DNA of 64,000 nt from Alcaligenaceae bacterium (GCA_013205565.1 JABMMM010000174.1:2290-66289); one strand, 5' to 3'. Shown: positions 18,049 through 37,972, counted from the first letter of the stretch. Numbers and translations: made by a program. Notes: generated by a model not told the origin, from the letters alone.

Positions 18049-18051
18049 CCC

Positions 18052-18861
18052 TTACCCTAACACCGTCGCAGGATCTGAATAACGCCTTGCCACATACATC
18101 ACCACCCACGTTACCAAGCCTAGCGCGATCGAAAGCGACGCAGCTAACGCAAAGTTAGCGTAATTTGTAAACTCAGAATAGATCGTGATCGGCAATACTT
18201 CAAATTTGGTCGCCAGTGTAAAGGCCGTGCCAAAGGCACCCATCGAGGTTGCAAAAACAATTGCGGCGCAAGCCAGCGTTGTTGGTGCTAATTCTGGCAG
18301 CCAAACATCACGCACGATTGCATAACGTGTGGCGCCTAAGGTTCTGGCAGCCTCTTCAAGAGCCAGATCCATTTTCTCAGCGGCCGCCGTATAGGTGGCG
18401 ATTGCACGCGGTAACGAAAAATACAAATACGCTAGAAAGAGGCCCAAGAAGCCATAAGCAAGTGTCAGGCGACCTGCCCCCAAGGCTTCAGACAGGTCAG
18501 CGATCAACCCCTGACGCCCGCCCAACAGAATCATAAAAAAACCAATAATCACTCCGGGAAAAGACAAGGGCAGGGTTAAAAGTGAAAGTAATATGCCGCG
18601 CCCCGCAAACTTGTGACGCGCTAAAAAAATTCCAACTGCACTACCAAGAACAAGTGTCAAGACAGTGACTAGCAGCGACAGCCAAACGGTGTTCAACAGA
18701 CTCAACCAATAGCGAGGGTGAGTAAAAATAGCAAAGTAAGTTTCCCAGCCTTTTTGAGCAGGCAAAGCTACGAGCCACGCCATGGGCAATAACCAACACG
18801 CAAAAAAAATCACAACGACTGGCATCAAACACGCCAGCCGTTGTGCAGAGAGAGTTACCAC
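18052..18861 (-). CDS. ABC permease
   Basis: LEEAARTLGA (EAA motif). Confidence 0.88.
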   Translation of the reverse strand: MVTLSAQRLACLMPVVVIFFACWLLPMAWLVALPAQKGWETYFAIFTHPRYWLSLLNTVWLSLLVTVLTLVLGSAVGIFLARHKFAGRGILLSLLTLPLSFPGVIIGFFMILLGGRQGLIADLSEALGAGRLTLAYGFLGLFLAYLYFSLPRAIATYTAAAEKMDLALEEAARTLGATRYAIVRDVWLPELAPTTLACAAIVFATSMGAFGTAFTLATKFEVLPITIYSEFTNYANFALAASLSIALGLVTWVVMYVARRYSDPATVLG

Positions 18862-18892
18862 CTCGTACTTACGGTATCAGCGGCAAGCGAAC

Positions 18893-19903
18893 TTATTGCA
18901 CGTCTTTCAAATACCGTTCTGAAAACATCTTTTGCACTTTAGCCATTTGACCGTAATCGACGGTCTTGGCACGTGCATAGTCTGCTGCGGGCAAGAAACG
19001 GGCTTGTACCTCTGCAGGGACAGCCGAGGCTCTCACAGGGCGCAGATAAGCGTTTGCCCACAGTGCTTGCCCCTCGTCAGACAGCACAAAATCAAGAACT
19101 TTTTTACCATTCTCGGCATTTGGGCCTTTGTTCACGAGGCTCATCACGTACGGCACCACCAAGGTGCCCTCAGCGGGAATCACAAAGGCTACGTTCGCCT
19201 TGTCTTTATACTTTGCGCGATAGGCATTGAAATCGTAATCCAACAAGATCGCAATTTCGCCCGACAACACACGCGCGTAAGACGTTTGCTTAGGCACGAT
19301 TGGCTCGTTCTTTTTCAGTGCTTTGAAATACTCAATCGCTGGACCAAAGTTATCAAGCGAACCGCCCCGCGCTTGATTGATCGCCACTGCCCCCACATAG
19401 CCAACAAACGCCGAGGCTGGGTCTAAATAGCCAATCAAGCCTTTGTATTCAGGCTTAAGTAAGTCAGCCCATGACTTAGGAATAGCCTTGCCTTTTAGGG
19501 CGTCAACATTGACCATCAATCCTAAGGTGCCCGAATGAATCGTAAACCAATTACCCGCGGGGTCTTTCAATGCATCTGGAATGTCATTCCAGGCCGCAGG
19601 CTTAAAGGGTGTGACGACCCCGTCCGCCGCCGCCTGAATACCAAAGGTGACCCCCAGATATGTGACGTCTGCAACTGGGCTAGCCTTTTCAGCGACAAGT
19701 TGCGCCAGAGACTGACCAGAGTTTTTATTATCAGGGGGGACGGTGATTCCCGTTTTAGCCTTGATAGCCTTGAGTTGTGATCCCCAGTCTGCCCACTCAG
19801 GTGGGCAGTTGTAACAGATCGCAGACTGTGCCATCGCAACACTTGAAGACAACGCAATACCTAACAGACCCACACGCAATATCTTATTTATTAGAGCTTT
19901 CAT
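18893..19903 (-). CDS. Periplasmic binding protein (AfuA/PhnS/thiamine-like class), ligand unknown
   Basis: Signal peptide MKALINKILRVGLLGIALSSSVAMA; PKSWADLLKPEYKG, IPAEGT; start moved to 19903. Confidence 0.85.
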   Translation of the reverse strand: MKALINKILRVGLLGIALSSSVAMAQSAICYNCPPEWADWGSQLKAIKAKTGITVPPDNKNSGQSLAQLVAEKASPVADVTYLGVTFGIQAAADGVVTPFKPAAWNDIPDALKDPAGNWFTIHSGTLGLMVNVDALKGKAIPKSWADLLKPEYKGLIGYLDPASAFVGYVGAVAINQARGGSLDNFGPAIEYFKALKKNEPIVPKQTSYARVLSGEIAILLDYDFNAYRAKYKDKANVAFVIPAEGTLVVPYVMSLVNKGPNAENGKKVLDFVLSDEGQALWANAYLRPVRASAVPAEVQARFLPAADYARAKTVDYGQMAKVQKMFSERYLKDVQ

Positions 19904-19969
19904 GGTCAGTACCCTCAGTAATGTCGAACACAAAACAATGCTGCAATGCCGCCAGCGAAATGAATCTTC

Positions 19970-20003
19970 AGTTTGCCTCAGAACCGTGACAAGCATATGA
20001 ATC
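19970..20003 (-). promoter_or_regulatory. Pho-box promoter of the ABC-phosphodiesterase operon
   Basis: GATTCAT-ATGC-TTGTCAC (20003-19986), 10 nt, CAAACT (19975-19970). Confidence 0.65.
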
Positions 20004-20069
20004 TGTTGTTGCAAAACTTCAATTTCTCAAAAAGTTAGCTTGTGCAGCATCATTTGGCGAAATGAGGCT

Positions 20070-20169: not shown

Positions 20170-20430
20170 ATGAATGTAAAGAAACGTTGGGTGGCTTACT
20201 GCTCGGGCAATACCCGCGATGCGACTGAAGACGATTGGAACAATTTTGTCTTAAAGACCTATTTGAACTGGCGCAAGCAGGCGCTCGACCTTGATACGAA
20301 CACAGCCACAGAAGCAGGAAAAACGCTGACTGAATATGCACAGGCTCACTACAGTTTTACGAAGTTCACTGAGGGCGCAGAGATTTATCAAGAGCTTGTA
20401 GACCTTGAAGAGAAACGTCATCACGCATGA
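20170..20430 (+). CDS. Hypothetical 86-aa soluble protein
   Basis: Fills the intergenic space with no overlap of real genes; natural composition; GGGG purine tract before ATG; candidate promoter upstream. Confidence 0.65.
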   Translation: MNVKKRWVAYCSGNTRDATEDDWNNFVLKTYLNWRKQALDLDTNTATEAGKTLTEYAQAHYSFTKFTEGAEIYQELVDLEEKRHHA

Positions 20431-22566: not shown

Positions 22567-23322
22567 TCACGCGCCGCCCAGCAGCGGCCATTGCTCAAGC
22601 AGCACAAAATCGGCACCACGCGTAGGTTCAACAAAAATTGCCAAGGACTCGACTACGCAGGGCGGCAATTGCTCAAAATGTTGATGCGCGGCTTCAGTCA
22701 AGGCACTTAGCTCGTGCGGCGAGGCTGTTGCCAGCGAACCCGTCAGTGAGCAATGAAATCGAAAGCGATCAAGAACATAGGGGTAGCCCCAACGTACCAA
22801 CAGTGAGTCTTCGTGCGAGGACAAGCCCGCACTTCTGCGTCTGCGCAGCTCGTCTGGCCCAAGAGGCGCGGCATAGTCGTTTAGCTCTTTCACACATTGC
22901 TCTTCGAGCAGCGTCAACTGCACCGCGTCACGCTCTGGCACCAGAGCTAGAAAATGATCTAAGAGCTTGACCTGCAGACGTGGCAAGACAAAGGGCTTTA
23001 AGTTTTGACACAAGCGACTGACGCAGTCACTCAGATCCCTCGGCTGATACTGGCTGGCCAACACAAAAGGAGCCCTCAAGGTGGCATGAAAACCATAGCG
23101 TCTTGGGTGTTCTGTTAGCTCCGCGAACCTCTGTGCAGAAACCCCAGACACCGAAGGCTGAGGGTTCAATTGCTGACTGAGCGCGCACCGCCCCAACCAG
23201 AGACTACCTTGCGCCCACCACTGCTGTTCGACATTGGGTGCAAAGTAAACAGCGTAACGGTGAGCCCGTTGCGCCGTGTACCTTGACGCCTCTAGCGCCG
23301 CCCTCAAATCACTGATTGTCAT
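22567..23322 (-). CDS. DUF1045 phn-associated protein (2H-phosphoesterase-like)
   Basis: RYAVYFAP, PRRYGFHATL, YPYV...RFHCSLTG; divergent from phnG. Confidence 0.85.
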   Translation of the reverse strand: MTISDLRAALEASRYTAQRAHRYAVYFAPNVEQQWWAQGSLWLGRCALSQQLNPQPSVSGVSAQRFAELTEHPRRYGFHATLRAPFVLASQYQPRDLSDCVSRLCQNLKPFVLPRLQVKLLDHFLALVPERDAVQLTLLEEQCVKELNDYAAPLGPDELRRRRSAGLSSHEDSLLVRWGYPYVLDRFRFHCSLTGSLATASPHELSALTEAAHQHFEQLPPCVVESLAIFVEPTRGADFVLLEQWPLLGGA

Positions 23323-23371
23323 AAAACGTTAATGTCTTCGTCATCAAAACACAATATTGACCGCCTAAACT
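23316..23371 (+). promoter_or_regulatory. Pho box array and -10 of the phnG-M operon
   Basis: TTGTCAT-AAAA-CGTTAAT-GTCT-TCGTCAT-CAAA-ACACAAT (23316-23355), 10 nt, TAAACT. Confidence 0.75.
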
Positions 23372-23434
23372 TGGCTATTACCTCGTATAAACAGCTCTCG
23401 CGATGCGACTCTGTGCTAAGAAAGTAACAAGTGA

Positions 23435-23944
23435 ATGTTGCAACCATCTGACAGTCGGCTTTCTACAACAAACACCGCACGAGCACAGTGGCTTGCTTTG
23501 CTGGCACGCGCGCCACTAGCGCTGCTCGAAGATGCTCTGCAGGAACATGTTCAGGCAACTCCGCATTGGTTACGCAAACCTGAAACTGGGCTCATGATGG
23601 TCGAAGCCCGTGCAGGTGGTAGTGGCGAGCGCTTTAATCTAGGCGAAATGACCGTGACACGCTGTGCCTTACGCCTATCGAATGCCCCGACACACCGTCA
23701 CGTAGGGATCTCCTACATTGTCGGCCGTTCGCATCGCCATGCTTACTTGGCTGCCGTCGCAGACGCCTTGTTACTAGACGACTCTGAGCACGCGGCGCTT
23801 GAACAAGCTCTGCTCACCCCTGTGAGGCAGTTACTGGCTGCAAATAAAAAAATTCGCCAGGCGCAGGCTGATACCAGCAAGGTCGATTTTTTTACGGTCG
23901 CACGTGAAAGTGGCTCGGATTCAACCGATGAGGAGCAGTCGTGA
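23435..23944 (+). CDS. phnG: C-P lyase subunit PhnG
   Basis: PETGLMMV...GGSGERFNLGEMTVTRC, SKVDFFT. Confidence 0.95.
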   Translation: MLQPSDSRLSTTNTARAQWLALLARAPLALLEDALQEHVQATPHWLRKPETGLMMVEARAGGSGERFNLGEMTVTRCALRLSNAPTHRHVGISYIVGRSHRHAYLAAVADALLLDDSEHAALEQALLTPVRQLLAANKKIRQAQADTSKVDFFTVARESGSDSTDEEQS

Positions 23945-24573
23945 CTACCATTGAACTCTCTGAGCTTGCTGCGGGCTTTAGCGACATTTCACTGGGCAGC
24001 CAAAGCGTCTTCAGAGCAGCTCTAGAGGCTCTGTCTTACCCGGGACGTCCTGTCCTGCTTGAAGTGACGTTTGAAGCGCCCAAGGCTGCACACGCCAGTT
24101 CAAGTGGCTTGCTACTCGCGCTACTAGAGCCTGGCTCGCTGCTTTGGCTTTCACCTAGTCTCGCAGACACCGACGCTGCGACCTGGATTGTGTTTCACAC
24201 GGATTGCAAACTCACACCACATCCGCACGAGGCAGACTTCGCGTGGATCAAACACTGGGATGAACTCCCCGCGTTAGAGTGTTTCGCTTTAGGAACAGAC
24301 GAATATCCAGACCACTCCACAACCTGTGTCATCGATATCGCGGCCCCGAGCACCCAGACAGTCACAGCGCCTTCGCTCACGTTGACGGGCCCCGGCATTG
24401 CGGTGACCTCAACCATTGAGCAGTTGTCGGCCACACCACTTCAAGTGGAAGGCTTCGTTGAGCAATGGGCAAACAATCAAGCTAGCTTTCCGAGGGGAGT
24501 TGACGTCTTTTTTACGACGAGCACGGGTCTGATCGGCCTGCCAAGAACAACCCGTATTCAAGTTTCAGGTTAG
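23941..24573 (+). CDS. phnH: C-P lyase subunit PhnH
   Basis: SQSVFR..L.ALSYPG, GTDEYPD.STT, LTGPGI, FPRGVD, GLPRTT. Confidence 0.95.
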   Translation: MTTIELSELAAGFSDISLGSQSVFRAALEALSYPGRPVLLEVTFEAPKAAHASSSGLLLALLEPGSLLWLSPSLADTDAATWIVFHTDCKLTPHPHEADFAWIKHWDELPALECFALGTDEYPDHSTTCVIDIAAPSTQTVTAPSLTLTGPGIAVTSTIEQLSATPLQVEGFVEQWANNQASFPRGVDVFFTTSTGLIGLPRTTRIQVSG

Positions 24574-24581
24574 GGCATCTT

Positions 24582-25715
24582 ATGTATGTAGCCGTTAAAG
24601 GTGGAGAACAAGCCATCTTGAGTAGTTACCAACTACTCGATCAACAACGTCGTGGCGACCTAAGCGTTCCAGAGTTATCGATCGCACAAATTCGTCAACA
24701 GATGAAACTCGCGGTCGATCGGGTGATGACGGAAGGCTCGGTCTTTGATCCAGAGCTTGCAGCGCTTGCCATCAAACAAGCTTGTGGCGATCTGGTTGAG
24801 GCCATTTTTCTTTTACGCGCCTACCGGGCGACTTTACCCAGACTTGGTTCTACACAACCGCTTGATACAAGCAAGATGGTGCTAGATCGTCGGATCTCTG
24901 CCACGTTTAAGGATTTGCCTGGCGGGCAAGTGCTTGGACCAACCTACGACTATACCCAGCGACTGTTAGATTTCTCGTTGCTGGCAACCAGTGAGCCGGC
25001 CAATCTCAACCCAAGCCACGATGATCATAACAATCGCGCCCAGCTTGAAGATGCGCATTTGTCCCCCCGCGTGATTGATCTGTTAAACCGCGAAGGATTA
25101 ATCGAAACCCATCCGGCCAAGCAAAATGATCCAACGCCTTTCGACCTGACACGCCAGCCCGTGCGCTTCCCGGCTGATCGCAGTACCCGTCTGCAAAATC
25201 TTGCACGTGGTGACGAAGGCTTTTTACTTGCGATGGCCTATTCCACACAACGTGGCTATGCCAACAGCCATCCCTTCGTTGGTGAAATTCGTTTGGGTTC
25301 AGTAGAAATCGAGTTGATACCAGAAGAGCTGGGCTTTGCCATTTCAATCGGCGATATTGAAATCACAGAATGTCAGATGATCAATCAGTTTGCAGGTAGC
25401 AAAACCGAGCCACCTCAGTTCACGCGCGGCTATGGCTTAGCGTTTGGTCATAGCGAGCGTAAGGTAATGGCGATGAGTTTAGTGGATCGCGCTTTGCGTG
25501 CGTCTGAGTTAGGCGAATTGGTGCAATCACCCGCGCAGATGCCCGAGTTCGTCCTTTCGCACAGCGATAGCCTTGAAGCCTCTGGCTTTGTGCAACATCT
25601 TAAGCTGCCTCACTACGTTGACTTTCAATCAGAGCTTGAGCTCGTTAGAAAGATGCGTGCCTCACCCATCCAAACGTCGACCTTGACTGAGGATGTTGGA
25701 GATGAACATGCTTAA
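24582..25715 (+). CDS. phnI: C-P lyase subunit PhnI
   Basis: MYVAVKGGE, RRISATFKDLPGGQ, GFVQHLKLPHYVDFQ. Confidence 0.97.
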   Translation: MYVAVKGGEQAILSSYQLLDQQRRGDLSVPELSIAQIRQQMKLAVDRVMTEGSVFDPELAALAIKQACGDLVEAIFLLRAYRATLPRLGSTQPLDTSKMVLDRRISATFKDLPGGQVLGPTYDYTQRLLDFSLLATSEPANLNPSHDDHNNRAQLEDAHLSPRVIDLLNREGLIETHPAKQNDPTPFDLTRQPVRFPADRSTRLQNLARGDEGFLLAMAYSTQRGYANSHPFVGEIRLGSVEIELIPEELGFAISIGDIEITECQMINQFAGSKTEPPQFTRGYGLAFGHSERKVMAMSLVDRALRASELGELVQSPAQMPEFVLSHSDSLEASGFVQHLKLPHYVDFQSELELVRKMRASPIQTSTLTEDVGDEHA

Positions 25716-26652
25716 AGAGAATGCAACCCGCGCAGCAGCGGGCGCGGCAGTCGCCTCTCACGAAAATCAAGCTGTTGATCAGCATTTTAATTTTGCGTAT
25801 CTCGACGAACGTACCAAGCGCATGATCCGTCGGGCAATTTTAAAAGCCGTTGCCATCCCAGGCTATCAAGTGCCCTTTGGTTCTCGGGAGATGCCTTTGC
25901 CCTATGGCTGGGGCACAGGCGGTATCCAAGTCACAGCCTCGGTGATTGGACCTCACGATGTGCTTAAAGTGATCGATCAAGGCTCCGACGATACCGTCAA
26001 TGCAGTCAATATTCGTCGCTTTTTTCAACGCACGACGAACGTTGAGATTACGACGCAAACGCAAGCCGCTACCCTCATTCAGACGCGTCATCGCATTCCT
26101 GAAATGGCGCTCACAGAAGATCAGATCATCATTTATCAAGTGCCGGTACCCGAACCGATGCAGCGCCTTGAGCCACGCGAACGCGAAACGCGCAGTCTGC
26201 ATGGCTTAGCCGAGTATGGCCTGATGCACGTCAAACTTTATGAAGATATCGCCCGCTATGGTCATATCGCAACGACCTACGACTATCCCGTGCTCGTCAA
26301 TTATCGTTATGTGATGGCACCCTCGCCGATTCCAAAATTTGACAATCCAAAGATGCACATGAATCCCGCGCTCCAACTGTTTGGCGCGGGTCGCGAAAAG
26401 CGTATTTATGCAGTACCTCCGTACACCGCCGTTGAAAGTCTTGGGTTTGAAGACTATCCCTTTGAAATCCAGCGCTGGGACGCCCCCTGTGAACTGTGCG
26501 GCTCAAAAGATAGCTTTCTGGATGAAGTGATTACCGATGATCAAGGTGGCCGGATTTTCGTCTGCTCTGACTCTGATTACTGTGAGACTCAGCAAAACAA
26601 AGTCGAGCAAACGACAGTGACCGCGGCGCAGCCGGTGTTGAAGGATGTTTAA
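25708..26652 (+). CDS. phnJ: C-P lyase radical-SAM subunit PhnJ
   Basis: KAVAIPGYQVPF.SREMP, GWGTGG, C-X2-C...FVCSDSDYC; start placed at 25708, overlapping the phnI stop. Confidence 0.97.
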   Translation: MLKENATRAAAGAAVASHENQAVDQHFNFAYLDERTKRMIRRAILKAVAIPGYQVPFGSREMPLPYGWGTGGIQVTASVIGPHDVLKVIDQGSDDTVNAVNIRRFFQRTTNVEITTQTQAATLIQTRHRIPEMALTEDQIIIYQVPVPEPMQRLEPRERETRSLHGLAEYGLMHVKLYEDIARYGHIATTYDYPVLVNYRYVMAPSPIPKFDNPKMHMNPALQLFGAGREKRIYAVPPYTAVESLGFEDYPFEIQRWDAPCELCGSKDSFLDEVITDDQGGRIFVCSDSDYCETQQNKVEQTTVTAAQPVLKDV

Positions 26653-27442
26653 TTCAATGCCTGTCGACAAACAGTCACCCATCTTACGTGCAACCGGTCT
26701 GAACAAAAGCTACGGCGACCGAGCCGCGCTAATTGACGCAAGCTTTGAGCTTTGGCCGGGCGAAGTTCTTGCCATTGTGGGTGAGTCCGGCTCAGGTAAA
26801 ACCACACTGCTCAATGCACTGGCAGCGCGTGACCAACCCGACTCAGGTTCGGTCGAGTTTCAGTTAAAAGACGGTGCACTCACTGACATCTTCAAGATGA
26901 CTGAGGCACAGCGACGTCTGCTCGCACGCACCGACTGGGGGTTCGTACATCAAAATTCAGCAGACGGCCTAAGAATGGAAGTGTCGGCCGGTGCCAATGT
27001 GGGAGAGCGCTTGATGGCCTTGGGCCAGCGTCATTACGGAAAGCTGCGCGCCACCGCCTGCGACTGGCTTGTGCGCGTTGAAATTGACCCTGCCAGAATC
27101 GATGACTTACCTCGGCATTTTTCAGGTGGTATGCGCCAACGCCTACAGATTGCCCGCAACTTAGTCACTCAGCCCAGACTGGTCTTTATGGATGAGCCGA
27201 CCTCAGGGCTAGACGTCTCAGTGCAAGCCAAATTACTCGATCTCTTGCGCCAGTTGACTCAGCACTTAGGGCTGGCCTCGGTCATTGTCACCCATGATCT
27301 TGCAGTGGCCCGTTTATTAGCCCATCGCATGATTGTGATGCGCCGTGGCCGCATCGTAGAAACAGGCCTGACAGATCAAGTGCTTGACGACCCACAACAT
27401 CCTTACACCCAACTTTTAGTGTCCTCGGTGCTGCAGCCATGA
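26645..27442 (+). CDS. phnK: C-P lyase ATPase PhnK
   Basis: GESGSGKTT, LARTDWGFVHQ, FSGGMRQR, DDPQHPYTQLLVSS. Confidence 0.96.
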   Translation: MFNSMPVDKQSPILRATGLNKSYGDRAALIDASFELWPGEVLAIVGESGSGKTTLLNALAARDQPDSGSVEFQLKDGALTDIFKMTEAQRRLLARTDWGFVHQNSADGLRMEVSAGANVGERLMALGQRHYGKLRATACDWLVRVEIDPARIDDLPRHFSGGMRQRLQIARNLVTQPRLVFMDEPTSGLDVSVQAKLLDLLRQLTQHLGLASVIVTHDLAVARLLAHRMIVMRRGRIVETGLTDQVLDDPQHPYTQLLVSSVLQP

Positions 27443-28164
27443 CCACGCCCGTTTTACGACTCACCAACGTGAGCAAGCAGTTCACTTTGCATCACCAGGG
27501 GATGACGTTACCCGTGTTGCAAAACGTCAGCTTTGAGGTCGCTGCGGGCGAATGCGTGGTGTTGGACGGCACGTCAGGAATGGGCAAGAGCACCTTACTC
27601 AAACTCATTTATTCAAACTATCGGGTAAGTGCGGGTTCGATCCACTACGCACAGGCAGGTCACGCCCCTCTTGAATTAACCACGGCGAGTCCGCGCGTGC
27701 TGATCGATGTCCGTCGCCACCATATTGGATACGTGAGTCAGTTTTTGCGCGTGATCCCAAGGATTTCAACACTTGATCTGGTAGCCGAGCCACTTTTGGC
27801 TGAACTTGGGCATGACGAGCACGCGCTTAAGCAGGCACGTGAACTTGCAGGCTTATGGCTCACGCGTCTACGCATTCCTGAGCGGCTGTGGAGCTTAGCA
27901 CCCGCAACGTTCTCGGGCGGTGAGCAGCAACGCGTCAATATCGCACGCAGCATGATCAAACCGCGCTCGTTACTCCTTCTGGATGAGCCCACTGCCTCAC
28001 TCGATGCCCTCAATACGCAAACAGTGGTGACACTCATCCAAGAAGCGATTGCAGCCGGTGCTGCTGCCGTCGGAATCTTTCACGACCAGGCGGTCGGTAA
28101 TCAACTTGCCACGCGCCGTCTCGACATGACCAATTTTCGGAGCATCACATGCGCGGCTCAGTAG
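27439..28164 (+). CDS. phnL: PhnL ATPase
   Basis: KQFTLH, GYVSQFLRVIPR, APATFSGGEQQR, GIFHD. Confidence 0.96.
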   Translation: MTTPVLRLTNVSKQFTLHHQGMTLPVLQNVSFEVAAGECVVLDGTSGMGKSTLLKLIYSNYRVSAGSIHYAQAGHAPLELTTASPRVLIDVRRHHIGYVSQFLRVIPRISTLDLVAEPLLAELGHDEHALKQARELAGLWLTRLRIPERLWSLAPATFSGGEQQRVNIARSMIKPRSLLLLDEPTASLDALNTQTVVTLIQEAIAAGAAAVGIFHDQAVGNQLATRRLDMTNFRSITCAAQ

Positions 28165-29306
28165 TCATTACTAACGCTCGATTGATTATGAATCACGAGG
28201 TTATCCACGGCTCAATCTCAGTGGTAAACGGTCGTATCGACTCAATCGATTCTGGCCTGAGCACAACCCCAGGTGCGATCGACTTTGAGGGCGACTTTCT
28301 AATGCCGGGCATGATTGAAATTCATACCGATAACTTTGAACGTCACTTGATGCCACGACCAAAGGTCATGTGGGCCGAAAAACCTGCGCTGATTGCGCAT
28401 GATGCCGAGATTGCCTGCGCGGGCATCACAACTGTGTTTGATGCACTCGGCGTAGGCGAGGCAGACACCGAAAGCGTTCGAGGTCAAACTTGGGGGCATG
28501 TACTCTCGGCTCTTGATCAATACACCAAAGACAAACTTCTGCGTGCCGATCACTATATTCATGTGCGCTGTGAACTACCGGCACCAAATACGATTGAACT
28601 TTTTAAACCTTTTGATGGCCACTCGCGTCTCGGCCTCATCTCGTTGATGGACCATACTCCGGGTCAACGCCAATGGGAGGACATTGAGCAAGCGCGCGTG
28701 TACTTTATCGGCAAAAAGGGCTGGAGCCAAGAAAAATTCGAAGACAAGGTCAGCCACGCGACCATGCTGCAAGATCAATTTAGTGCCCCGCACCGACAGT
28801 ATTTCGTTGACTATACAAAACGAACCGGTATCCATCTAGCCAGTCACGATGACACCACCGAGGCACACGTACAGCAGGCCTTTGCTGAAGGTGCCAGCAT
28901 GTCTGAATTCCCGACCACCATCGCCGCTGCGCGATGTGCAAAAAATTTAGGGTTGCTCACCGTGATGGGCGGCCCCAACGTGGTGCGTGGCGGTTCGCAC
29001 TCTGGCAATGTGTCTGCCACTGAATTGGCTAAGCAGGGTCTACTCGACGTGCTGTCCTCCGATTATGTGCCGGGTAGCTTGCTCAGCGCCGTAGCACGTT
29101 TAGTGCAAGAGGGTGTGATGACTTTGCCAGAGGCCGTTGCCACCGTCACACGCCATCCCGCACAAGCAACAGGGCTAAATGATCGCGGTGCGTTAGAAAT
29201 TGGCTTCAGAGCCGACCTCGTTCGCATGCGTCTGCACGAATCGGCAGGTCAACCCAGCCATGCTTTCGCACGCTCAGTGTGGCGCGAGGGTCGCCAGGTT
29301 GTTTGA
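28149..29306 (+). CDS. phnM: alpha-D-ribose 1-methylphosphonate 5-triphosphate diphosphatase
   Basis: PGMIEIHTDN, MDHTPGQRQ, ASHDD, EFPTT, GGSHSGN, LSSDY. Confidence 0.96.
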   Translation: MRGSVVITNARLIMNHEVIHGSISVVNGRIDSIDSGLSTTPGAIDFEGDFLMPGMIEIHTDNFERHLMPRPKVMWAEKPALIAHDAEIACAGITTVFDALGVGEADTESVRGQTWGHVLSALDQYTKDKLLRADHYIHVRCELPAPNTIELFKPFDGHSRLGLISLMDHTPGQRQWEDIEQARVYFIGKKGWSQEKFEDKVSHATMLQDQFSAPHRQYFVDYTKRTGIHLASHDDTTEAHVQQAFAEGASMSEFPTTIAAARCAKNLGLLTVMGGPNVVRGGSHSGNVSATELAKQGLLDVLSSDYVPGSLLSAVARLVQEGVMTLPEAVATVTRHPAQATGLNDRGALEIGFRADLVRMRLHESAGQPSHAFARSVWREGRQVV

Positions 29307-29336
29307 TTTTTTTCTATCGCCCACTTCTGATTTTAA

Positions 29337-29381
29337 TATTCACATAACTGTAAGCCGTTTGTCATGTCAGACGGCCATACT
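29337..29381 (+). promoter_or_regulatory. Pho-box promoter of the phnZ-ABC-PMH operon
   Basis: TATTCAC-ATAA-CTGTAAG-CCGT-TTGTCAT (29337-29365), 10 nt, CATACT. Confidence 0.7.
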
Positions 29382-29637
29382 AATCAGGAACGAAATACGG
29401 ATTTTCTTTAAGACTGCCGCGCGCCACATGACCACTCTGCACAAACGCCTTCACCCCAAAAACCAAGCACTGTGCGACCTTAATCTAAGTTCCAAAAAGA
29501 CGGTCCGATCGCGTCTCACATTCGTGTGTCATGTACAAGTGTTGAACATTGTTTTGAACAACTTTAGTGCCCTAGTGACCGGTCGCGATGTTCTGTCTGC
29601 GCGAATTCGCCGCGCGCTTGTTTAACAAAGGTTTGAA

Positions 29638-30192
29638 ATGGCTTTAACTTTAAATGATGTGACGCAACTACTCACCGTTGAAGGTAACAATCAATACGGC
29701 GGCGAAGCCGTCAGTCAACTTGAGCATGCCCTTCAATGCGCCGCGCTGGCCGAGCAAGCAGGCGAAACACCGCATACGATCACCGCAGCCTTATTGCACG
29801 ATATCGGACATTTGTTAGCCAAAACCGGGCGCGTTCAAGCAAGTGCCAGTAACGGGAGTGGTGACGACTTGCATCAGTATGTTGCCTTGCCTTTTTTGCG
29901 AGGCCTGTTTTCGAACGCGGTCCTTGAACCTATTCGCTTACATGTCGATGCTAAACGCTACCTCTGTGCAACAGACCAGTCGTACTGGACCACCCTTTCG
30001 ACGGCCTCCAAACATAGCCTCATTATGCAAGGCGGTACGTACACCCCACCACAGGCGGCAGAATTTGAAGCGCAATCGTTTGCCCAAGAGGCCGTGCGGC
30101 TTCGTCGCTATGACGATTTGGCCAAAATGCCTGAGGCTGTCACGCCAGCTTTGCCATACTTTTTAAAAATTATACATAGCGTCGCACTTTGA
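29638..30192 (+). CDS. phnZ: PhnZ-like HD-domain di-iron phosphonate oxygenase
   Basis: YGGEAVSQLEHALQ, LLHDIGH, HVDAKRYL, SKHSL.MQGG, RRYDDLAK. Confidence 0.8.
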   Translation: MALTLNDVTQLLTVEGNNQYGGEAVSQLEHALQCAALAEQAGETPHTITAALLHDIGHLLAKTGRVQASASNGSGDDLHQYVALPFLRGLFSNAVLEPIRLHVDAKRYLCATDQSYWTTLSTASKHSLIMQGGTYTPPQAAEFEAQSFAQEAVRLRRYDDLAKMPEAVTPALPYFLKIIHSVAL

Positions 30193-30231
30193 CTCGCTAG
30201 CACATTCACCCGATCTACCTACAGGATTCAC

Positions 30232-31899
30232 ATGCAACTGCTTCACTCTAAACGTTGGTTTCTGAAACTCACTGCGCTCGGGCTGTGTGCGTTAGCGTTG
30301 CCAAGCGCCTTTTCGCAACCCGCAGACACTCGCCCTGTGGTGCGCGTGGCAGTACAGCAATTACTCACCAGCGGTGCGCTAGACCCCTTGCGCGAGCAAA
30401 GTAACGTTGGCACGCGCATTTTGCCGATGATTTATGCCGGTCTGATCCAACTAGATACCGTTGGAGATCTTTCGCCGCGGCCTTCACTTGCTGAATCGTG
30501 GAAGCGCATTGACGCCCAGACCATCGAATTTAAGTTGCGCCCCGGTGTTAAGTTTCACAACGGCGATGAGGTGACCGCTGAAGATGTTGCGTTTAGCTTT
30601 GGCGCTGAGCGCATGTTCGGTACCTCTGCGCCCCGTCAACTCAATCAAGACAGTAAAACGATTGCGGTAGACATCGGTCGCAAGACCACAAGTTCAACAG
30701 CCGGTAGCATGGAATTACCCCCACCTGAGATTACTGCGATCGCACGTAATTTATGGCCCTCTTTGCAAAGCGTCGAGATCGTCGATCGCTACACCGTGCG
30801 CCTGGTCAACGCCATGCCGGACCTCACCCTCGAAGGGCGCATCGCGCGTTTAGGCTCTGAGATCGTTTCAAAGAAAGCCTATATGGCCTCAAAAGACTGG
30901 GCGAGTTGGGCTCAGGCGCCGGTAAGCGCAGGCCCATACAAAGTTAAAGAGATGAAATTAGATCAGTATCTGGTCTTAACTGCGCATGATGACTATTTTG
31001 GCGGAAAGCCTTTAGTCAAAGAAATTCGCTACATGGTGGTGCCTGAAGTCTCTTCACGTATTAACGGCTTGTTATCTGGTCAATACGACTTTGTGACCGA
31101 TATCCCGCCAGATCAGTTCAAAACGATACAAGGCAATGCCAAGCTCGAGGTGGTCGGTGGCCCAGTGCTGAATCACCGTCTGATTACGTTCGACAAAAAT
31201 CACCCAGTCCTTGCAAACCCAAAAGTGCGACAGGCCATGACGCATGCGATTGATCGCAACGCCATCGTCGAAGCAATCTGGGGTGGTCAAACTCGCGTGC
31301 CCGCTGGTCTGCAATTTGAGTTCTACGGCGATATGTTCGTGAAAGGCTGGACAGTACCGAAGTATGACGTGGCGCTTGCCAAAAAGCTTCTGACTGAGGC
31401 TGGCTACAAGGGCGAAGTGATTCACTTCAGAGGCTTGAACAATTACTACACCAATCAGACACAAACTGACCAAATCATGCTCGAGATGTGGCGCGCTGCC
31501 GGCCTGAACGTTCAAATGTCGATGAAAGAAAACTGGGCACAAATTTTTGAGAAAGGGCCAACGCGCGGTGTCCGTGGCTGGTCAAATTCAGCGCCCTTTA
31601 GTGATCCAGTGAGCTCACTGGTTAACCAACATGGACCAAATGGTCAACAACAACAGACCGGCGAATGGACAAACGTTGAGTTCAATAAATTGTCTGACAT
31701 ACTTTCGACCTCAGTTGATCCGGTTGAGCGGCAACAGACCTTTAAACGCATGCTAGAGATTGCCGAACGTGAAGACCCTGCCTACACAGTTCTACATCAG
31801 AGTGCAGTGTTCTATGCCAAACGTAAAGACTTTGTCTGGAAGCCCTCAAAGACCTTCGTCATGGATTTTCGTGCCACAAACCTCACCCCGCCAAAATAA
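30232..31899 (+). CDS. Family-5 periplasmic binding protein, AccA (agrocinopine)-like
   Basis: LAESW..ID, GVKFHNG, GPY; C-terminal half (NNYY...MLEMWR, RGWSN, GPNGQ, KRKDFVWKP...MDFR) resembles A. tumefaciens AccA as I recall it. Confidence 0.8.
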   Translation: MQLLHSKRWFLKLTALGLCALALPSAFSQPADTRPVVRVAVQQLLTSGALDPLREQSNVGTRILPMIYAGLIQLDTVGDLSPRPSLAESWKRIDAQTIEFKLRPGVKFHNGDEVTAEDVAFSFGAERMFGTSAPRQLNQDSKTIAVDIGRKTTSSTAGSMELPPPEITAIARNLWPSLQSVEIVDRYTVRLVNAMPDLTLEGRIARLGSEIVSKKAYMASKDWASWAQAPVSAGPYKVKEMKLDQYLVLTAHDDYFGGKPLVKEIRYMVVPEVSSRINGLLSGQYDFVTDIPPDQFKTIQGNAKLEVVGGPVLNHRLITFDKNHPVLANPKVRQAMTHAIDRNAIVEAIWGGQTRVPAGLQFEFYGDMFVKGWTVPKYDVALAKKLLTEAGYKGEVIHFRGLNNYYTNQTQTDQIMLEMWRAAGLNVQMSMKENWAQIFEKGPTRGVRGWSNSAPFSDPVSSLVNQHGPNGQQQQTGEWTNVEFNKLSDILSTSVDPVERQQTFKRMLEIAEREDPAYTVLHQSAVFYAKRKDFVWKPSKTFVMDFRATNLTPPK

Positions 31900-32881
31900 T
31901 GAACTCGACTGTAGTTGATTCTCACCCGCTACTAAATATCAGCGAACTACGGATCGCGTTCGACCAACGCGGACACACCTCTGAAGTGTTGCATGGCGTC
32001 GATCTGCAAATCGCGCGCGGCGAATCAATTGGTCTGGTGGGTGAGTCGGGCTGCGGCAAGAGCGTCACTTGGTTAGGCGTGCTCGGCTTATTAGGTCAGC
32101 AAGCGCAGGTGACGGGTTCGGTCAAGTTTCAAGGCCGCGAACTTCTCGGTTTATCGGATGCAGAACTTTCGCAGATACGCGGTCGAAAGATCGCGATGAT
32201 TTTTCAAGATCCGAGTTCATCGCTCAATCCAGCCCAGCGCATTGGTGCGCAAATTGCAGAGAGTTTGTCCCTGCATCGAGGCTTGCGCGGCGCGCAGGCA
32301 AAAGCGGAGGTACTTGCCTTATTGGATCACGTTGAGATTCCCGATGCCAAGAGGCGCATCAACGCTTATCCGCATGAACTTTCGGGCGGCATGAATCAAC
32401 GCGTCATGATTGCCATGGCTTTAGCCGGACAACCCGATTTACTCATCGCCGATGAACCCACCACCGCCTTAGATGCGACAGTACAAGCACAAATCTTGGT
32501 GTTGCTGGATACCATCCGGCGCGAGAGCGGTATGGCGCTTGTGACCATTTCGCACGACCTTGGCGTGATCTCAGAGATTAGCGATCGCGTGCTAGTGATG
32601 TATGCAGGCTCTATTGTCGAAAGCGCCCCAAGCCAGACATTATTCAGCGAGGCGCAACATCCTTACAGTCTTGGCCTCTTAGCAGCGATGCCACTGTTGA
32701 ACGCTGAGGTTAACCGTCTGACGACCATACGAGGCAGTCTTCCGCAAACAGGGCAACTCATGCAAGGGTGTCGTTTTGAGCCCCGTTGCGATTTTGCACA
32801 AGAGAACTGTCGCGCCAGCGCCCCTGCGCTCAAGACCATCGCAGTCGGTCACGTCTTAGCCTGCAACCGCAAACTGGCAGC

Positions 32882-32885
<4 letters not shown>
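31899..32885 (+). CDS. Opp/Dpp-type ABC ATPase
   Basis: GESGCGKS, YPHELSGGMNQR, DEPTTALD, C-terminal CRFEPRC. Confidence 0.92.
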
Positions 32886-33883
<998 letters not shown>

Positions 33884-33885
33884 AC

Positions 33886-34815
33886 ATGGGTCGATACCTG
33901 TTGTCTCGCAGTTTGCGCGCATTGCTGACCATTTTCTTAGTGGTTGGTTTTGCTTTCACGATCTTGCGTTTGTCGGGCGACCCAGCGATGATGATTTTAT
34001 CGGCCGATGCCCCACCCGAGGCCATCGCCGCTTTTCGCGCAAGCTGGGGCCTTGACGCACCCCTTTGGCAACAGTTTTGGGGTTACTTAATGAATATTCT
34101 GCAGGGAAACTTCGGGGTGTCAATGCGCGATGCCAGCCCTGCGATGGGGCTTGTGCTTGAAGCGATCCCGGCCACGCTGGCCCTCGCGCTCCCTGCGTTT
34201 GCTCTGAATCTGTTAATTGGCATCCCCGCAGGAATTTTCGCAGCCCTGCACCGAAACTCGTGGATGGATCGTGTCGTGATGAGTTTCTCTGTTGCTGGAC
34301 ACACCTTGCCAAGCTTCGTTCTAGGTCTGTTGTTGGTATTAATTTTCGCAGTGAGTTTGGGTTGGTTACCCAGCGGAGGGTTCAGTGGCGTTGAGCACGC
34401 GGTGTTGCCGATTTTGACCTTGACCGTGGGTGGCGCTGCTGTTTTGGCGCGTTACACACGATCGTCGATGTTAGAAGTCTTAGGCCAACCCTATATTCGG
34501 GCCGCCTCTGCTAAAGGCTTACGTTGGTCGCAAGTCGTGATTCGCCATGCTCTGCCCAACGCAGCATTGCCAATCATCACAATCGCTGGGCTTATGTTCG
34601 GAGGTCTGATCGCAGGCGCGGTTGTTGTCGAAAGCGTATTTTCATGGCCGGGTGTCGGCCGACTCACCGTTTCTGCCGTCGGTAATCGTGATCTGGCCGT
34701 GGTGCAAGCGGCCTTGTTACTTATCACAGTCAGTATGGTCGCAACCAACTTGCTCGTCGATGCGATCTACTGCTTGTTTGATCCGCGCTTACGCACCAGC
34801 GCTGGCGCGCATTAA
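33886..34815 (+). CDS. Opp/Dpp-type permease (B)
   Basis: RLSGDP, YIRAASAKGL, VESVFSWPGVG; start moved to 33886. Confidence 0.92.
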   Translation: MGRYLLSRSLRALLTIFLVVGFAFTILRLSGDPAMMILSADAPPEAIAAFRASWGLDAPLWQQFWGYLMNILQGNFGVSMRDASPAMGLVLEAIPATLALALPAFALNLLIGIPAGIFAALHRNSWMDRVVMSFSVAGHTLPSFVLGLLLVLIFAVSLGWLPSGGFSGVEHAVLPILTLTVGGAAVLARYTRSSMLEVLGQPYIRAASAKGLRWSQVVIRHALPNAALPIITIAGLMFGGLIAGAVVVESVFSWPGVGRLTVSAVGNRDLAVVQAALLLITVSMVATNLLVDAIYCLFDPRLRTSAGAH

Positions 34816-34869
34816 TAGGCGCCAGAAAAAATTGATCCTCGCAGCCTTCACTCTAAAAAGTTATCCGCC

Positions 34870-35742
34870 ATGGCAGTCCTAGCGCCTTCACTTCCAACTA
34901 CCTCGCGTCATTATTTTTGGCAAGAGTACCCACCCCTCGTGATGATCGCAATCGCTTGGATTTTAGGGATATTCATCATCGCCGCATTGGCGGATCTAAT
35001 TGCACCGTACACCTATACAGCGCTTGATCTTAAAGCACGGCTGCAACCACCACTTGGGCTGGGCGGTACGACACGCCATTTGCTTGGCACCGATGAGCTG
35101 GGTCGGGACGTTCTTTCTAGACTATTGATCTCGGTGCAAGTGAGCCTGTTGATCGCCTTTGCCAGCACCTTGATTTCAGCTTTTATTGGACTCGCCTTAG
35201 GATTTTTATCCGCACACTTCAAGGGTTGGCTTGAACAGGTCGTGCTCACCTTGATTGATTTTCAAGCATCAATCCCATTCATGATCATTGCCTTGGCAGT
35301 GTTAGCTTTCTTTGGCAACACGCTGGTACTGTTTATTTGTTTAATGGGCTGCCACGGTTGGGAGCGTAGCGCGCGCATCACACGCAGCCTCACAATCGCG
35401 GCCAATGAACAAGGCTATGCCAACGCTGTGCATGCACTGGGCGCCAGTTCTTGGCGGGTCTACTTTCGGCATATTTTGCCCAATATCGCGAGCACGCTGA
35501 TCGTTAGCATGACGCTCACCTTTCCTGAGGTTATTTTGCTTGAATCAGGCCTGTCTTTTTTAGGCTTAGGTGTGCAACCCCCACTGACTAGCTTAGGCAA
35601 TATGGTGGGTTATGGTCGTGAATATTTACAAACGGCCCCTTGGATTTTGCTCGCTCCGAGCTGCGTCATTGTGTTGACCACCTTCTCGATCAGTCTGACC
35701 GGCGACTGGTTGCGTGACCGGCTAGATCCAACTCTGCGCTGA
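34870..35742 (+). CDS. Opp/Dpp-type permease (C)
   Basis: HLLGTDELGRD, HILPN, ESGLSFLGLG. Confidence 0.92.
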   Translation: MAVLAPSLPTTSRHYFWQEYPPLVMIAIAWILGIFIIAALADLIAPYTYTALDLKARLQPPLGLGGTTRHLLGTDELGRDVLSRLLISVQVSLLIAFASTLISAFIGLALGFLSAHFKGWLEQVVLTLIDFQASIPFMIIALAVLAFFGNTLVLFICLMGCHGWERSARITRSLTIAANEQGYANAVHALGASSWRVYFRHILPNIASTLIVSMTLTFPEVILLESGLSFLGLGVQPPLTSLGNMVGYGREYLQTAPWILLAPSCVIVLTTFSISLTGDWLRDRLDPTLR

Positions 35743-35765
35743 CTTATTTCTTACGGATTCATCTC

Positions 35766-37310
35766 ATGACAACTAAACAAAAGAATGTCTTACTCATTGT
35801 CGTCGATCAGTGGCGCGGCGATACGCTCAAAAATCTTGGGCATCCCGTCATTCAAACCCCCAACATCGAGTCCTTAGCGAGCGAAGGTGTGACCTTTGCC
35901 AAGCATTACACGCAAGCCGTACCATGCGGCCCTGGTCGTGCCTCAATGCTGACCGGTCTTTACATGATGAACCACCGTGCGGTTCAAAACACAATCCCAC
36001 TCGATTCACGGCACACGAATATCGCAAAAGAAGTACGCAAGGCTGGCTATGAACCCGCCTTAGTCGGCTACACCACCACCACTCCCGACCCGCGCGAAAC
36101 AGACGCTCAAGACCCACGCTTTAAAGTCTTAGGGGCAGACATGGAGGGCTGGCGCCCAGTCGGCTCATGGGGGCTAAAAATGGAGGCCTACTTTGCCTGG
36201 CTTGCCTCACAGGGCTTTGCCATGCCAAAAGTGCCTACCGACATCTGGTTGCCACAAGGCGGTACCGAAGCTGATATTGGCGCAACAGCTAAGCCAAGCA
36301 TGGTCCCTGCGCATTTATCCGACACCACTTGGTTTACAGACCGTGCGCTCGAATACCTGCAAGGGACAGAGAACAAGCCATGGTTCTTGCATCTTGGCTA
36401 CTACCGCCCTCACCCGCCCTTTAGCGCTGCGGCACCTTACCACGAGATGTATGACCCAAAAGACTGCCCACCGCCGATTCGGGCCGCAAGCAAAGGCCTT
36501 GAAGCTGAGCAACATCCCCTTCTAGACTTTTATCTTCAGTCCATCGAGCGTCGTCGCTTCTTTGAAAACGGCCAGGGACTTGGCGCAGACATGCAAGAAG
36601 CTGAAGTCCGTCAAATGCGTGCCACGTACTACGGCTTGATGTCTGAGGTGGATCATCACATTGGGCGCGTCTTTGAGTACTTAAAAAAGACAGGCCAGTG
36701 GGAGAACACTTTAATCGTGCTAACAAGCGATCATGGCGAACAATTGGGCGATCATCATTTGTTGGGTAAGCTTGGCTATTTTGATCAGAGCTTTCATATC
36801 CCAATGATTGTTCGTGACCCAAACCCCGAGGCGAATGCCACGCGCGGCAATATTGTTCGGAACTTTACCGAAACGATTGACACCATGCCCACGATCTTGA
36901 GCTGGCTCGAGCGGCCAATTCCCAGAACGTGCGACGGGCATTCACTGTTGCCCTTTATACAAACTGGCATCGCGCCTGCAGACTGGCGTACTGAAGTGCA
37001 TTATGAATTTGACTTTAGAAATATCTTCTACTCAAAACCCGAAGATTTTCTGGGCTTGTCAATGGATCAGTGCGCACTTTCAGTGATTCAAAATCACGAC
37101 TATAAATATGTACACTTTGCCGCGCTGCCGCCACTATTTTTTGATTTGACAAAAGATCCATCACAACTTCACAACGTTGCGCAAGATCCAAGCTACGCTC
37201 TCGCGTTATTAAAAATGACTCAAAAAATGCTTGACTGGAAGCTTTTGCACGCCGACCGCACGTTGACAGGCTATGCGGCCACGCCGGCTGGGTTGGTATC
37301 CAGGCTATGA
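35766..37310 (+). CDS. Phosphonate monoester hydrolase / phosphodiesterase (PMH, alkaline phosphatase superfamily)
   Basis: NVLLIVVDQWR, PCGPGRASMLTG (CxPxR formylglycine site), MNHRAVQNT, GYTTTTPDPR, HLGYYRPHPP, YVHFAALPPLFFDL, closely matching the recalled B. caryophylli/R. leguminosarum PMH. Confidence 0.88.
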   Translation: MTTKQKNVLLIVVDQWRGDTLKNLGHPVIQTPNIESLASEGVTFAKHYTQAVPCGPGRASMLTGLYMMNHRAVQNTIPLDSRHTNIAKEVRKAGYEPALVGYTTTTPDPRETDAQDPRFKVLGADMEGWRPVGSWGLKMEAYFAWLASQGFAMPKVPTDIWLPQGGTEADIGATAKPSMVPAHLSDTTWFTDRALEYLQGTENKPWFLHLGYYRPHPPFSAAAPYHEMYDPKDCPPPIRAASKGLEAEQHPLLDFYLQSIERRRFFENGQGLGADMQEAEVRQMRATYYGLMSEVDHHIGRVFEYLKKTGQWENTLIVLTSDHGEQLGDHHLLGKLGYFDQSFHIPMIVRDPNPEANATRGNIVRNFTETIDTMPTILSWLERPIPRTCDGHSLLPFIQTGIAPADWRTEVHYEFDFRNIFYSKPEDFLGLSMDQCALSVIQNHDYKYVHFAALPPLFFDLTKDPSQLHNVAQDPSYALALLKMTQKMLDWKLLHADRTLTGYAATPAGLVSRL

Positions 37311-37972
37311 AGACAGCCAAAGACTTTGTCGATGGCTGTTCGGCCATCGTCTTTGACCTTGATGGCACGCTCATGCATACCGAGCCCGATATTCGGCGTG
37401 CAGCAAACCAAGCGCTGATTGACTGTGGTTTTCAGACACTGGCGCCTGAACAAGTGATCCCAAACTTATATGGCCCGCTGCCCGACATTTTGGCCTCAGT
37501 GATGGCGCTCGTGCAGGCACCCGCGGTGGCCGCCGAGGAAATTCAACAGGCATACCTAACGCACTACGCGCGCCAAGCGCACGACCATTCGTTTCTATAT
37601 CCAAACGCCTTGGCTTTGCTCGAGCAATTACTTTCGCAAGGTCACCACTTAGCCGTATGCACCAATAAGATTGAGAAGTCGGCTAAGCAGGCGCTTGAAC
37701 GACACGGATTGTCCTCGTACTTTACGGTTGTAACGGGTGGCGATACGACCGCGCATCCCAAGCCTCACCCGTTGCCCTTACTCACGACAATTGACGCGTT
37801 GCAAGCCAAGGCTAGCAACTGCCTGTTGATTGGAGATACACACGTCGACGCGCTCTGTGCAAGCAACTGCGGCATACCCTTTGTTTTTCATTGCAGTGGC
37901 TATGGCGATGACTCAGTGCGACAGTATCCAGTTGCAGCGAGCTTTGCAAACTACGCAGAGATCTGTCGTTAG
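37307..37972 (+). CDS. HAD-family phosphatase (Gph-like)
   Basis: FDLDGTL, CTNK, KPHP, IGDTHVD; overlaps the PMH stop (ATGA). Confidence 0.85.
   Translation: MKTAKDFVDGCSAIVFDLDGTLMHTEPDIRRAANQALIDCGFQTLAPEQVIPNLYGPLPDILASVMALVQAPAVAAEEIQQAYLTHYARQAHDHSFLYPNALALLEQLLSQGHHLAVCTNKIEKSAKQALERHGLSSYFTVVTGGDTTAHPKPHPLPLLTTIDALQAKASNCLLIGDTHVDALCASNCGIPFVFHCSGYGDDSVRQYPVAASFANYAEICR

Follow-up and report, generated by a model that had tools for sequence, protein, structure and literature searches.

What is the function of an importer of the oligopeptide type that lies directly behind a C-P lyase operon and is grouped with a phosphonate monoester hydrolase? The question is raised by a 64,000-nucleotide stretch of DNA from an Alcaligenaceae bacterium (GCA_013205565.1 JABMMM010000174.1:2290-66289), referred to here at its full length as the window. 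It is contig C149 of a metagenome-assembled genome (MAG) of 3.4 Mb, 96% complete, whose nearest relatives are lake MAGs of the Alcaligenaceae/Burkholderiaceae; among cultured genera, Jezberella, Zwartia and Advenella stand closest, with Jezberella montanilacus as the nearest relative in culture. The part of interest (22567–37972) consists of two units. The first is phnGHIJKLM with a divergent DUF1045 gene, and the second is phnZ followed by genes for a periplasmic substrate-binding protein (SBP), two ATPases, two permeases, PehA (a phosphonate monoester hydrolase, PMH) and a HAD phosphatase. An earlier note on this DNA had seen in the second unit a salvage system for phosphonate esters. The reading preferred here is that its core function is probably the import and cytoplasmic hydrolysis of diester-type organophosphates, a form of scavenging similar to that of the acc and ugp systems and likely to be under Pho control.

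In outline, the AccA-like SBP would bind the phosphoryl group of a small anionic ester, R-O-P(O2-)-X, and the ABC transporter would carry the ester into the cytoplasm. There, PehA would cleave the ester bond and the HAD phosphatase would free phosphate from the resulting phosphomonoester, the whole unit probably being induced when phosphate runs short. As the original substrate class, and the commonest across carriers, a phosphodiester is most likely, probably that of a sugar or polyol. Phosphonate esters may be additional substrates in this lineage, since PehA-type enzymes cleave phosphonate monoesters, and an orphan PhnZ heads the module behind C-P lyase.

The binding protein

AccA is the agrocinopine and agrocin-84 binding protein. 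Among proteins of solved structure it is by far the best match to the window SBP (290 bits, E 2.6e-85, 34% identity), the next protein reaching 120 bits. In AccA, the phosphate of the ligand is bound by Asn54, Ser419, Tyr375 and Tyr376 (PMC4526662). All four are retained in the window protein, where they align with N58, S451, Y405 and Y406, and they are invariant across 12 orthologs. The description of the SBP as AccA-like is borne out by both the score and these residues.

The likeness extends to gene order. As annotated, the acc operon of pTiC58 consists of a regulator, the SBP, two ATPases, two permeases, a GDPD-family phosphodiesterase and an IMPase-type phosphatase. The window unit is collinear with it, PehA filling the diesterase slot and the HAD protein the phosphatase slot.

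PehA and its phosphatase

PMH/PehA enzymes have served as a model of catalytic promiscuity since 1996–2008. The window PehA shares about 68% identity with both of the crystallised PMHs, RlPMH (2vqr, 712 bits) and BcPMH (2w8s, 693 bits), and keeps the formylglycine motif CxPxR as CGPGR, aligned to the nucleophile position. Genes of the FGE family are present elsewhere in the genome and are candidates for the maturation enzyme. The HAD protein has phosphoglycolate phosphatases as its nearest models, below cut-off. The SBP carries a signal peptide and PehA, the HAD protein and PhnZ have none, so that import of the intact ester followed by de-esterification inside the cell, as had been proposed, appears well founded on predicted protein location.

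In Rhizobium johnstonii 3841, a strain that also has C-P lyase, pRL9 carries the gene for RlPMH itself immediately ahead of the genes for an SBP ortholog, two ATPases and two permeases. No paper was found that states a natural substrate, an importer or the regulation of PMH/PehA, or that describes the adjacency of RlPMH and importer on pRL9 (the locus tags of the neighbours were included in the search), and a search for PehA together with phosphodiester returned nothing relevant.

Conservation of the importer-PehA module

Genomes were scanned with an alignment of SBP orthologs, giving 80 loci (56–97% identity) that were taken with 10-kb flanks and each scored for every window gene. Open reading frames (ORFs) were clustered for the 64 loci that remain when the window's own clade (SBP identity of at least 90%) is set aside, and the counts below refer to genes within 10 kb. 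PehA accompanies the SBP and ABC genes at 38 of the 64 loci, in Beta- and Alphaproteobacteria. At 11 others, all alphaproteobacterial, a GDPD-family phosphodiesterase stands in the position of PehA, so that a diesterase of one kind or the other is linked to the importer at 49 of the 64. The HAD phosphatase is present at 14 of the 64 loci, in each case following PehA.

GDPD enzymes have taken the place of PehA repeatedly. Proteins partnered by GDPD form no single group on the SBP tree but occur in at least three subclades, between which lie proteins partnered by PehA, and well-supported branches force at least four changes. That the two diesterases appear interchangeable behind what is nearly one binding protein speaks for a phosphodiester as the shared ligand. 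Moreover, at least five distinct genomes with the full set of SBP, ABC genes, PehA and HAD lack any PhnJ, PhnZ or PhnX that scores above cut-off, and one of these is a complete chromosome (Parapusillimonas sp. JC17). Zwartia panacis KCTC 42751, too, carries the module and is without PhnJ. C-P bond cleavage is thus not required by the core module.

The search was also anchored on PehA. This gave one locus with the canonical module, one in which PehA follows an ABC set of the Ugp type, and two loci without a transporter. In Escherichia coli, ugpBAECQ is the Pho-regulon system for glycerophosphodiester uptake, with the cytoplasmic GDPD enzyme UgpQ. In Enhydrobacter aerosaccus (locus L095), a PehA ortholog is directly upstream of genes of the protocatechuate-dioxygenase type, with PhoD nearby; given these neighbours and the lack of an adjacent transporter, this context does not fit the picture of an importer module. 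One genome (G326, the source of loci L050, L091 and L092) has three PehA-family paralogs, of 907, 684 and 580 bits, in different contexts, and no C-P lyase.

Some of the public records have titles that look wrong. Lake MAGs named 'Bordetella parapertussis' (L009, L010, L015, L017, L021, L024, L026, L030 and L062) group with Alcaligenaceae of the Zwartia/Jezberella type, and a record named 'Bacillus subtilis strain SK6B4' (L069) has a Pseudochrobactrum-type locus that nests in that clade on the SBP tree.

Promoters and probable Pho control

The gap between phnM and phnZ is 331 bp, and the SBP gene starts 39 bp after the end of phnZ. A terminator-like hairpin with a T-run at the end of phnM (Table 1) suggests that phnG-M and phnZ-HAD are separate transcription units. 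A second Pho promoter had been claimed in front of phnZ. Three half-sites with 11-bp spacing are found there, shortly after the hairpin, and such a promoter is plausible, the evidence for it being sequence motifs.

Similar motifs occur at other promoters. A Pho-box-like motif, TTCGTCATCAAAACACAATATTGAC, is placed upstream of phnG, and the pattern TGTCATCAAAA...AATATT[CG]AC found there recurs at about 20074 and about 39362, again in promoter gaps. Pho-like motifs also precede plcP, a GT28 gene, the small ORF at 20170 and an Mpo1-like gene. The small ORF (86 aa, 20170–20430, plus strand) is preceded by the motif TGTCATCAAAA...AATATTCAC, as are phnG and the Mpo1-like gene.

In the whole window, boxes of the E. 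coli consensus number 8 against 4.6 expected, and 8 of 100 shuffles reach that figure; the raw count, being not above chance, was dropped as support, and weight is placed only on the position of the sites and on a strict genome-wide pattern. That pattern, with two half-sites, has four matches in the 3.4 Mb genome, three of them in promoters of phosphorus-related genes, including that of a PhnD-type transporter on contig C85. Upstream of SBP orthologs, a Pho-like box occurs at 7 of 78 loci, where 1.4 are expected (Poisson p = 6e-4). These patterns make Pho control of the phnZ-HAD unit likely in the source lineage.

Association with phosphonate catabolism

A number of observations fit less well with a Pho-controlled phosphodiester system and weigh against it. 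Within the family, PhnJ is present in 20 of 29 genomes with the module and in 144 of 372 without it (odds ratio 3.5, p = 0.003); within the window's genus the figures are 13 of 16 and 5 of 13 (odds ratio 6.9, p = 0.027). Pairs of PehA and PhnZ recur with three different importers. Besides the window type, these are found in genus g22, which belongs to another family and where a PehA of 46% identity ends an MFS-phnC-phnD-phnD-phnE operon that is convergent with phnG-M and has PhnZ nearby, and in genome G326, where a PehA of 51% identity is divergent from an operon of phnZ, SBP and family-5 ABC genes, the SBP not being AccA-like and C-P lyase being absent from the genome. Neither the co-occurrence with C-P lyase nor the recurrent PehA-PhnZ pairs are predicted if phosphodiesters are the sole substrate. 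In the binding protein, the sugar and gate residues of AccA are changed (Glu510 to F542, Trp178 to L207, Trp423 to P455, Glu434 to Q466), and only Asn284 (N314) is retained of the three residues that recognise the pyranose (Glu510, Asn284 and Glu434). With these and the Trp gate replaced, the phosphoryl group that is bound most likely sits on a different organic moiety, and, judged by its aligned residues, the pocket cannot separate a phosphodiester from a phosphonate monoester. Finally, strict searches gave no Pho box ahead of the Rhizobium pehA operon or, at most of the ortholog loci, ahead of the SBP gene, and Pho control may therefore not be general.

A wider contrast set 44 PhnJ-positive genomes among 50 with the module against 32 among 401 in an even sample of the order. 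It was rejected as confounded by phylogeny (41% of the family has PhnJ).

Much of this would suit a dedicated salvage of phosphonate esters, for which the acc-like PehA module and an orphan PhnZ would have been recruited in this freshwater lineage and, in separate events, in a handful of others. The compounds imported intact would be small esters in which a sugar or polyol is joined to methyl-, 2-hydroxyethyl- or 1-hydroxy-2-aminoethyl-phosphonate, and the phosphonate freed by PehA would pass to C-P lyase, yielding methane or ethylene, or to PhnZ. We regard this as unlikely to be the main function, though plausible as an extension confined to particular lineages; among the alternatives it is the most probable. 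In its favour, besides the enrichment of PhnJ and the PehA-PhnZ pairs with two other importers, phnZ lies immediately upstream of the SBP gene and downstream of the Pho-like site, and the module is found beside phn genes in four independent geometries: that of the window clade, a convergent one (L039 and L054), a divergent one (L046), and one with PhnZ right after PehA (L037).

The enzymes are also suited to such a route. PMHs reportedly act on both phosphonate monoesters and phosphodiesters (PMC5649143), and a PMH-type enzyme has been proposed to de-esterify the phosphonates of dissolved organic matter (DOM) ahead of C-P lyase (Sosa et al. 2017, PMC5649143). Of the entry route that the earlier note took to be undescribed, the de-esterification step was already part of that proposal. 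Genes annotated pmh have since been reported beside phnWX clusters in marine isolates (2026; PMC13608971), and in a 2023 review of phosphonate degradation phosphonate monoesters do not appear at all. The window PhnZ matches TmpB (6npa) and PhnZ (4mlm), with Tyr24, Glu27 and His34 (PhnZ numbering) and the HD motif conserved. No PhnY, PhnY* or TmpA partner for it lies in the window, and the search was extended to the genome (a MAG of 96% completeness); four PhyH-family genes found elsewhere were rejected as PhnY, all scoring far below the cut-offs of the PhnY*, TmpA and related models. If salvage were the function, PhnZ would need no PhnY, because its substrate would arrive already hydroxylated. 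A PhnZ without a PhyH-type PhnY is seen again in Zwartia panacis (L093, G403:C54), in an operon with the order plcP-phnC-phnD-phnE-Fe-ADH-FAD oxidoreductase-HAD-phnZ.

The genomic distribution speaks against salvage as the general function. In the family and genus samples, only the subclade with an SBP at least 90% identical to that of the window has the module next to phnJ. Overall, phn genes adjoin the module in this subclade and at 4 of the 64 other loci (C-P lyase genes at three, L039, L046 and L054, and PhnZ at one, L037), which is about the rate of plcP, a functionally unrelated Pho gene (two of 64, L039 and L056). The earlier note had named a lack of conserved linkage to phn genes as grounds for refuting it, and as regards adjacency this linkage is largely missing. 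PhnJ is enriched among module carriers in both family and genus, but around one third of the carriers in the family are without C-P lyase, and the genomes without PhnJ, PhnZ and PhnX number at least five. The odds ratios of 3.5 and 6.9 come from a comparison that covered no control Pho gene, and shared selection for phosphorus scavenging could produce such values. In addition, GDPD enzymes repeatedly take the place of PehA, and a free phosphonate as the product of PehA would leave the HAD phosphatase without a role.

Importers of the ordinary kind are another point against salvage. The statement that the locus is without phnCDE is true of the window but false for the genome, which encodes five PhnD-family binding proteins with phnC/phnE neighbours, two on contig C169 and one each on C80, C152 and C85. 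All five score above the cut-off of the phosphate/phosphite/phosphonate subfamily and below that of the PhnD equivalog. A further qualification is the PhnS/T/U/V-like ABC system in the window itself (Table 1). With PhnD-type importers in the genome, C-P lyase should not need the family-5 system to obtain its substrate.

A search of the genome for phnN, as had been suggested, found it above cut-off on contig C56, fused to a second domain. The protein (C56:13490-15265, minus strand) has 591 aa; phnN forms its N-terminal part (187 bits), and the C-terminal two thirds resemble a thymidine-phosphorylase/glycosyltransferase-3 domain. On C80 (5060–10899), genes of phnC, phnD and phnE type precede one for a D-2-hydroxyacid (PtxD-like) dehydrogenase and one resembling isocitrate/isopropylmalate dehydrogenase, with a PhyH-family dioxygenase gene divergent alongside. 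This ptx-like operon may be a system for the oxidation of phosphite or hypophosphite.

Other readings of the module

It is improbable that the module is a catabolic system for an opine-like sugar phosphodiester, used as a carbon source or signal in the manner of acc, with no role in phosphate starvation and with its place beside phn genes incidental. The collinearity with acc could be read in this way, as could the setting on pRL9, where the module has sugar ABC transporters, a sugar-phosphate isomerase and a LacI regulator as neighbours and is without a strict Pho box, a feature it shares with most loci of the strict scan. However, neither AccR/DeoR nor any other dedicated regulator is found beside the window module, Pho-like sites are over-represented in front of the SBP gene, and the module lies among phosphate-starvation genes in the window, at L039 and L056, and at loci of the Zwartia type. 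The residues that make AccA sugar-specific are also not conserved.

An ordinary importer of peptides, nickel or metallophores, with PehA and HAD as unrelated neighbours, would agree with the public annotation ('peptide/nickel transport system'), with the family-5 fold of the SBP and the Opp/Dpp-type permeases and ATPases, and with the NCBIfam best matches (nickel and oligopeptide SBP models, all far under their cut-offs), but is very hard to reconcile with the score of AccA against at most 110 bits for each of the peptide, nickel and haem binders, the conserved phosphate-binding tetrad and the linked diesterase at 49 of 64 loci.

Gene content of the locus and its surroundings

Genes were called from an ORF listing together with profile searches over the window (Pfam, and NCBIfam/TIGR with their cut-offs). 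Every gene that the earlier note had listed, from phnGHIJKLM and phnZ to the family-5 ABC genes, PMH and HAD, is present at the position given for it. The features are collected in Table 1; the Pfam matches of PhnG, PhnH, PhnI and PhnJ have E values of 1e-44 to 5e-162.

Table 1. Features of the phn/pehA region and of a neighbouring importer unit (positions in the window)
Feature	Position	Strand	Evidence and remarks
PhnS/T/U/V-like ABC system ending in metallophosphodiesterase	15379–20014	-	upstream of the phn genes
DUF1045 / TIGR03223-like 'phosphonate metabolism protein'	22567–23322	-	PF06299 159.6 bits; TIGR03223 238.7 bits, narrowly missing cut-off of 248.95
Pho-box-like motif upstream of phnG	23337–23362	+	predicted from sequence
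C-P lyase core operon phnGHIJKLM	23435–29306	+	all seven subunits in order
phnG	23435–23944	+	Pfam PhnG
phnH	23941–24573	+	Pfam PhnH
phnI	24582–25715	+	Pfam PhnI
phnJ	25693–26652	+	Pfam PhnJ
phnK	26645–27442	+	
phnL	27439–28164	+	
phnM	28149–29306	+	NF011984, 523.9 bits
Terminator-like hairpin and T-run at phnM end	29279–29313	+	stem 29279–29296
Pho-box-like site upstream of phnZ	29337–29365	+	half-sites TATTCAC-N4-CTGTAAG-N4-TTGTCAT
PhnZ-type HD-domain diiron oxygenase	29638–30192	+	TIGR03276 227.6 bits, cut-off 214.6
AccA-like periplasmic binding protein (SBP, family 5)	30232–31899	+	PF00496; Sec signal peptide
ABC ATPase 1, oligo_HPY type	31899–32885	+	PF00005 + PF08352; kept beside SBP in other loci
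ABC ATPase 2, oligo_HPY type	32882–33883	+	PF00005 + PF08352; ORF opens at 32786, likely start ATG 32882
ABC permease 1, DppB/OppB type	33886–34815	+	PF00528 + PF19300; ORF opens at 33766, likely start ATG 33886
ABC permease 2, DppC/OppC type	34870–35742	+	PF00528 + PF12911
PehA / phosphonate monoester hydrolase-phosphodiesterase	35766–37310	+	NF045661 927.5 bits, equivalog cut-off 900
HAD-IA phosphatase-like hydrolase	37307–37972	+	PF13419 122 bits; start overlaps pehA stop by 4 bp

The DUF1045 gene, divergent from phnG in the window, adjoins phnG at L089, L090 and L010 as well. None of phnCDE, phnF, phnN, phnO and phnP is found within the C-P lyase operon (a genome search for PhnP was not made), and the DUF1045 protein could perhaps stand in for PhnP.

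The surroundings resemble a phosphate-starvation block, with an ABC unit of the PhnS type, GT28, a PlcP-like metallophosphoesterase and a GT4 glycosyltransferase. The PhnS-type unit, composed of a PhnS-like SBP, two permeases, a PhnT2-like ATPase and the metallophosphodiesterase, amounts to a second set of importer and cytoplasmic diesterase. The best solved relatives of its diesterase are PDB 2dxl and 3d03 (GpdQ). At Zwartia-type loci (L026, L029-L031 and L034), this unit is directly downstream of PehA-HAD. No Rfam family was found in 15000–40000, and no Pfam match was obtained for the 141-aa ORF at 29200–29625 or for the 86-aa ORF described above.

Significance and comparison with known systems

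The component families are known, and the scheme follows acc and ugp; the novelty lies in bringing together an AccA-type importer, PehA, a HAD phosphatase and promoters of the Pho type, joined in some lineages by PhnZ or C-P lyase. PMH/PehA, including the crystallised RlPMH, is thereby given a physiological context, a conserved module for import and subsequent hydrolysis that occurs in hundreds of proteobacterial genomes, and with it a probable natural role. The conservation of the module makes the physiological role of PMH directly testable in cultured strains. If the ligands include phosphonate monoesters, the module would supply the missing step of uptake and de-esterification between the esterified phosphonates of DOM and C-P lyase, a step on which the 2023 review is silent, and would then bear on methane production in oxic waters, here lakes. 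If the ligand is a phosphodiester only, the module is still a widespread means, so far undescribed, of obtaining phosphorus from diesters.

Among phosphonate systems, the C-P lyase operon resembles phnC-P of E. coli in having a complete phnGHIJKLM, and differs from it in lacking phnCDE, phnF, phnN, phnO and phnP and in having a DUF1045 gene divergent from phnG. Compared with the oxidative PhnY/PhnZ pathways, PhnZ is above the family cut-off, but there is no recognisable PhnY. The window PehA scores above the equivalog cut-off and shares the CxPxR motif with RlPMH (pRL90232) and BcPMH; its gene is the last before HAD in the window, whereas on pRL9 that of RlPMH comes first.

With ugp, the module would share the Pho-controlled ABC import of a phosphodiester and its subsequent hydrolysis in the cytoplasm, and one PehA ortholog stands in the UgpQ position. 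The SBP is of family 5 rather than family 1, however, and the diesterase has a different fold.

The closest parallel is acc (accR-accABCDEFG) of the Ti plasmids, and the window SBP represents the closest uncharacterised relative class of AccA (4ra1, 4zeb, 8c6u). The two systems have a matching gene order and the phosphate-binding tetrad in common, and in both the substrate would be imported intact and cleaved inside the cell. In place of the GDPD-family AccF, the window module has a formylglycine PMH, and in place of the IMPase-family AccG a HAD phosphatase. Neither AccR (DeoR) nor another regulator gene adjoins it, and Pho-like boxes are found instead. In contrast to acc, the module is chromosomal, widespread in free-living Beta- and Alphaproteobacteria and without connection to crown gall.

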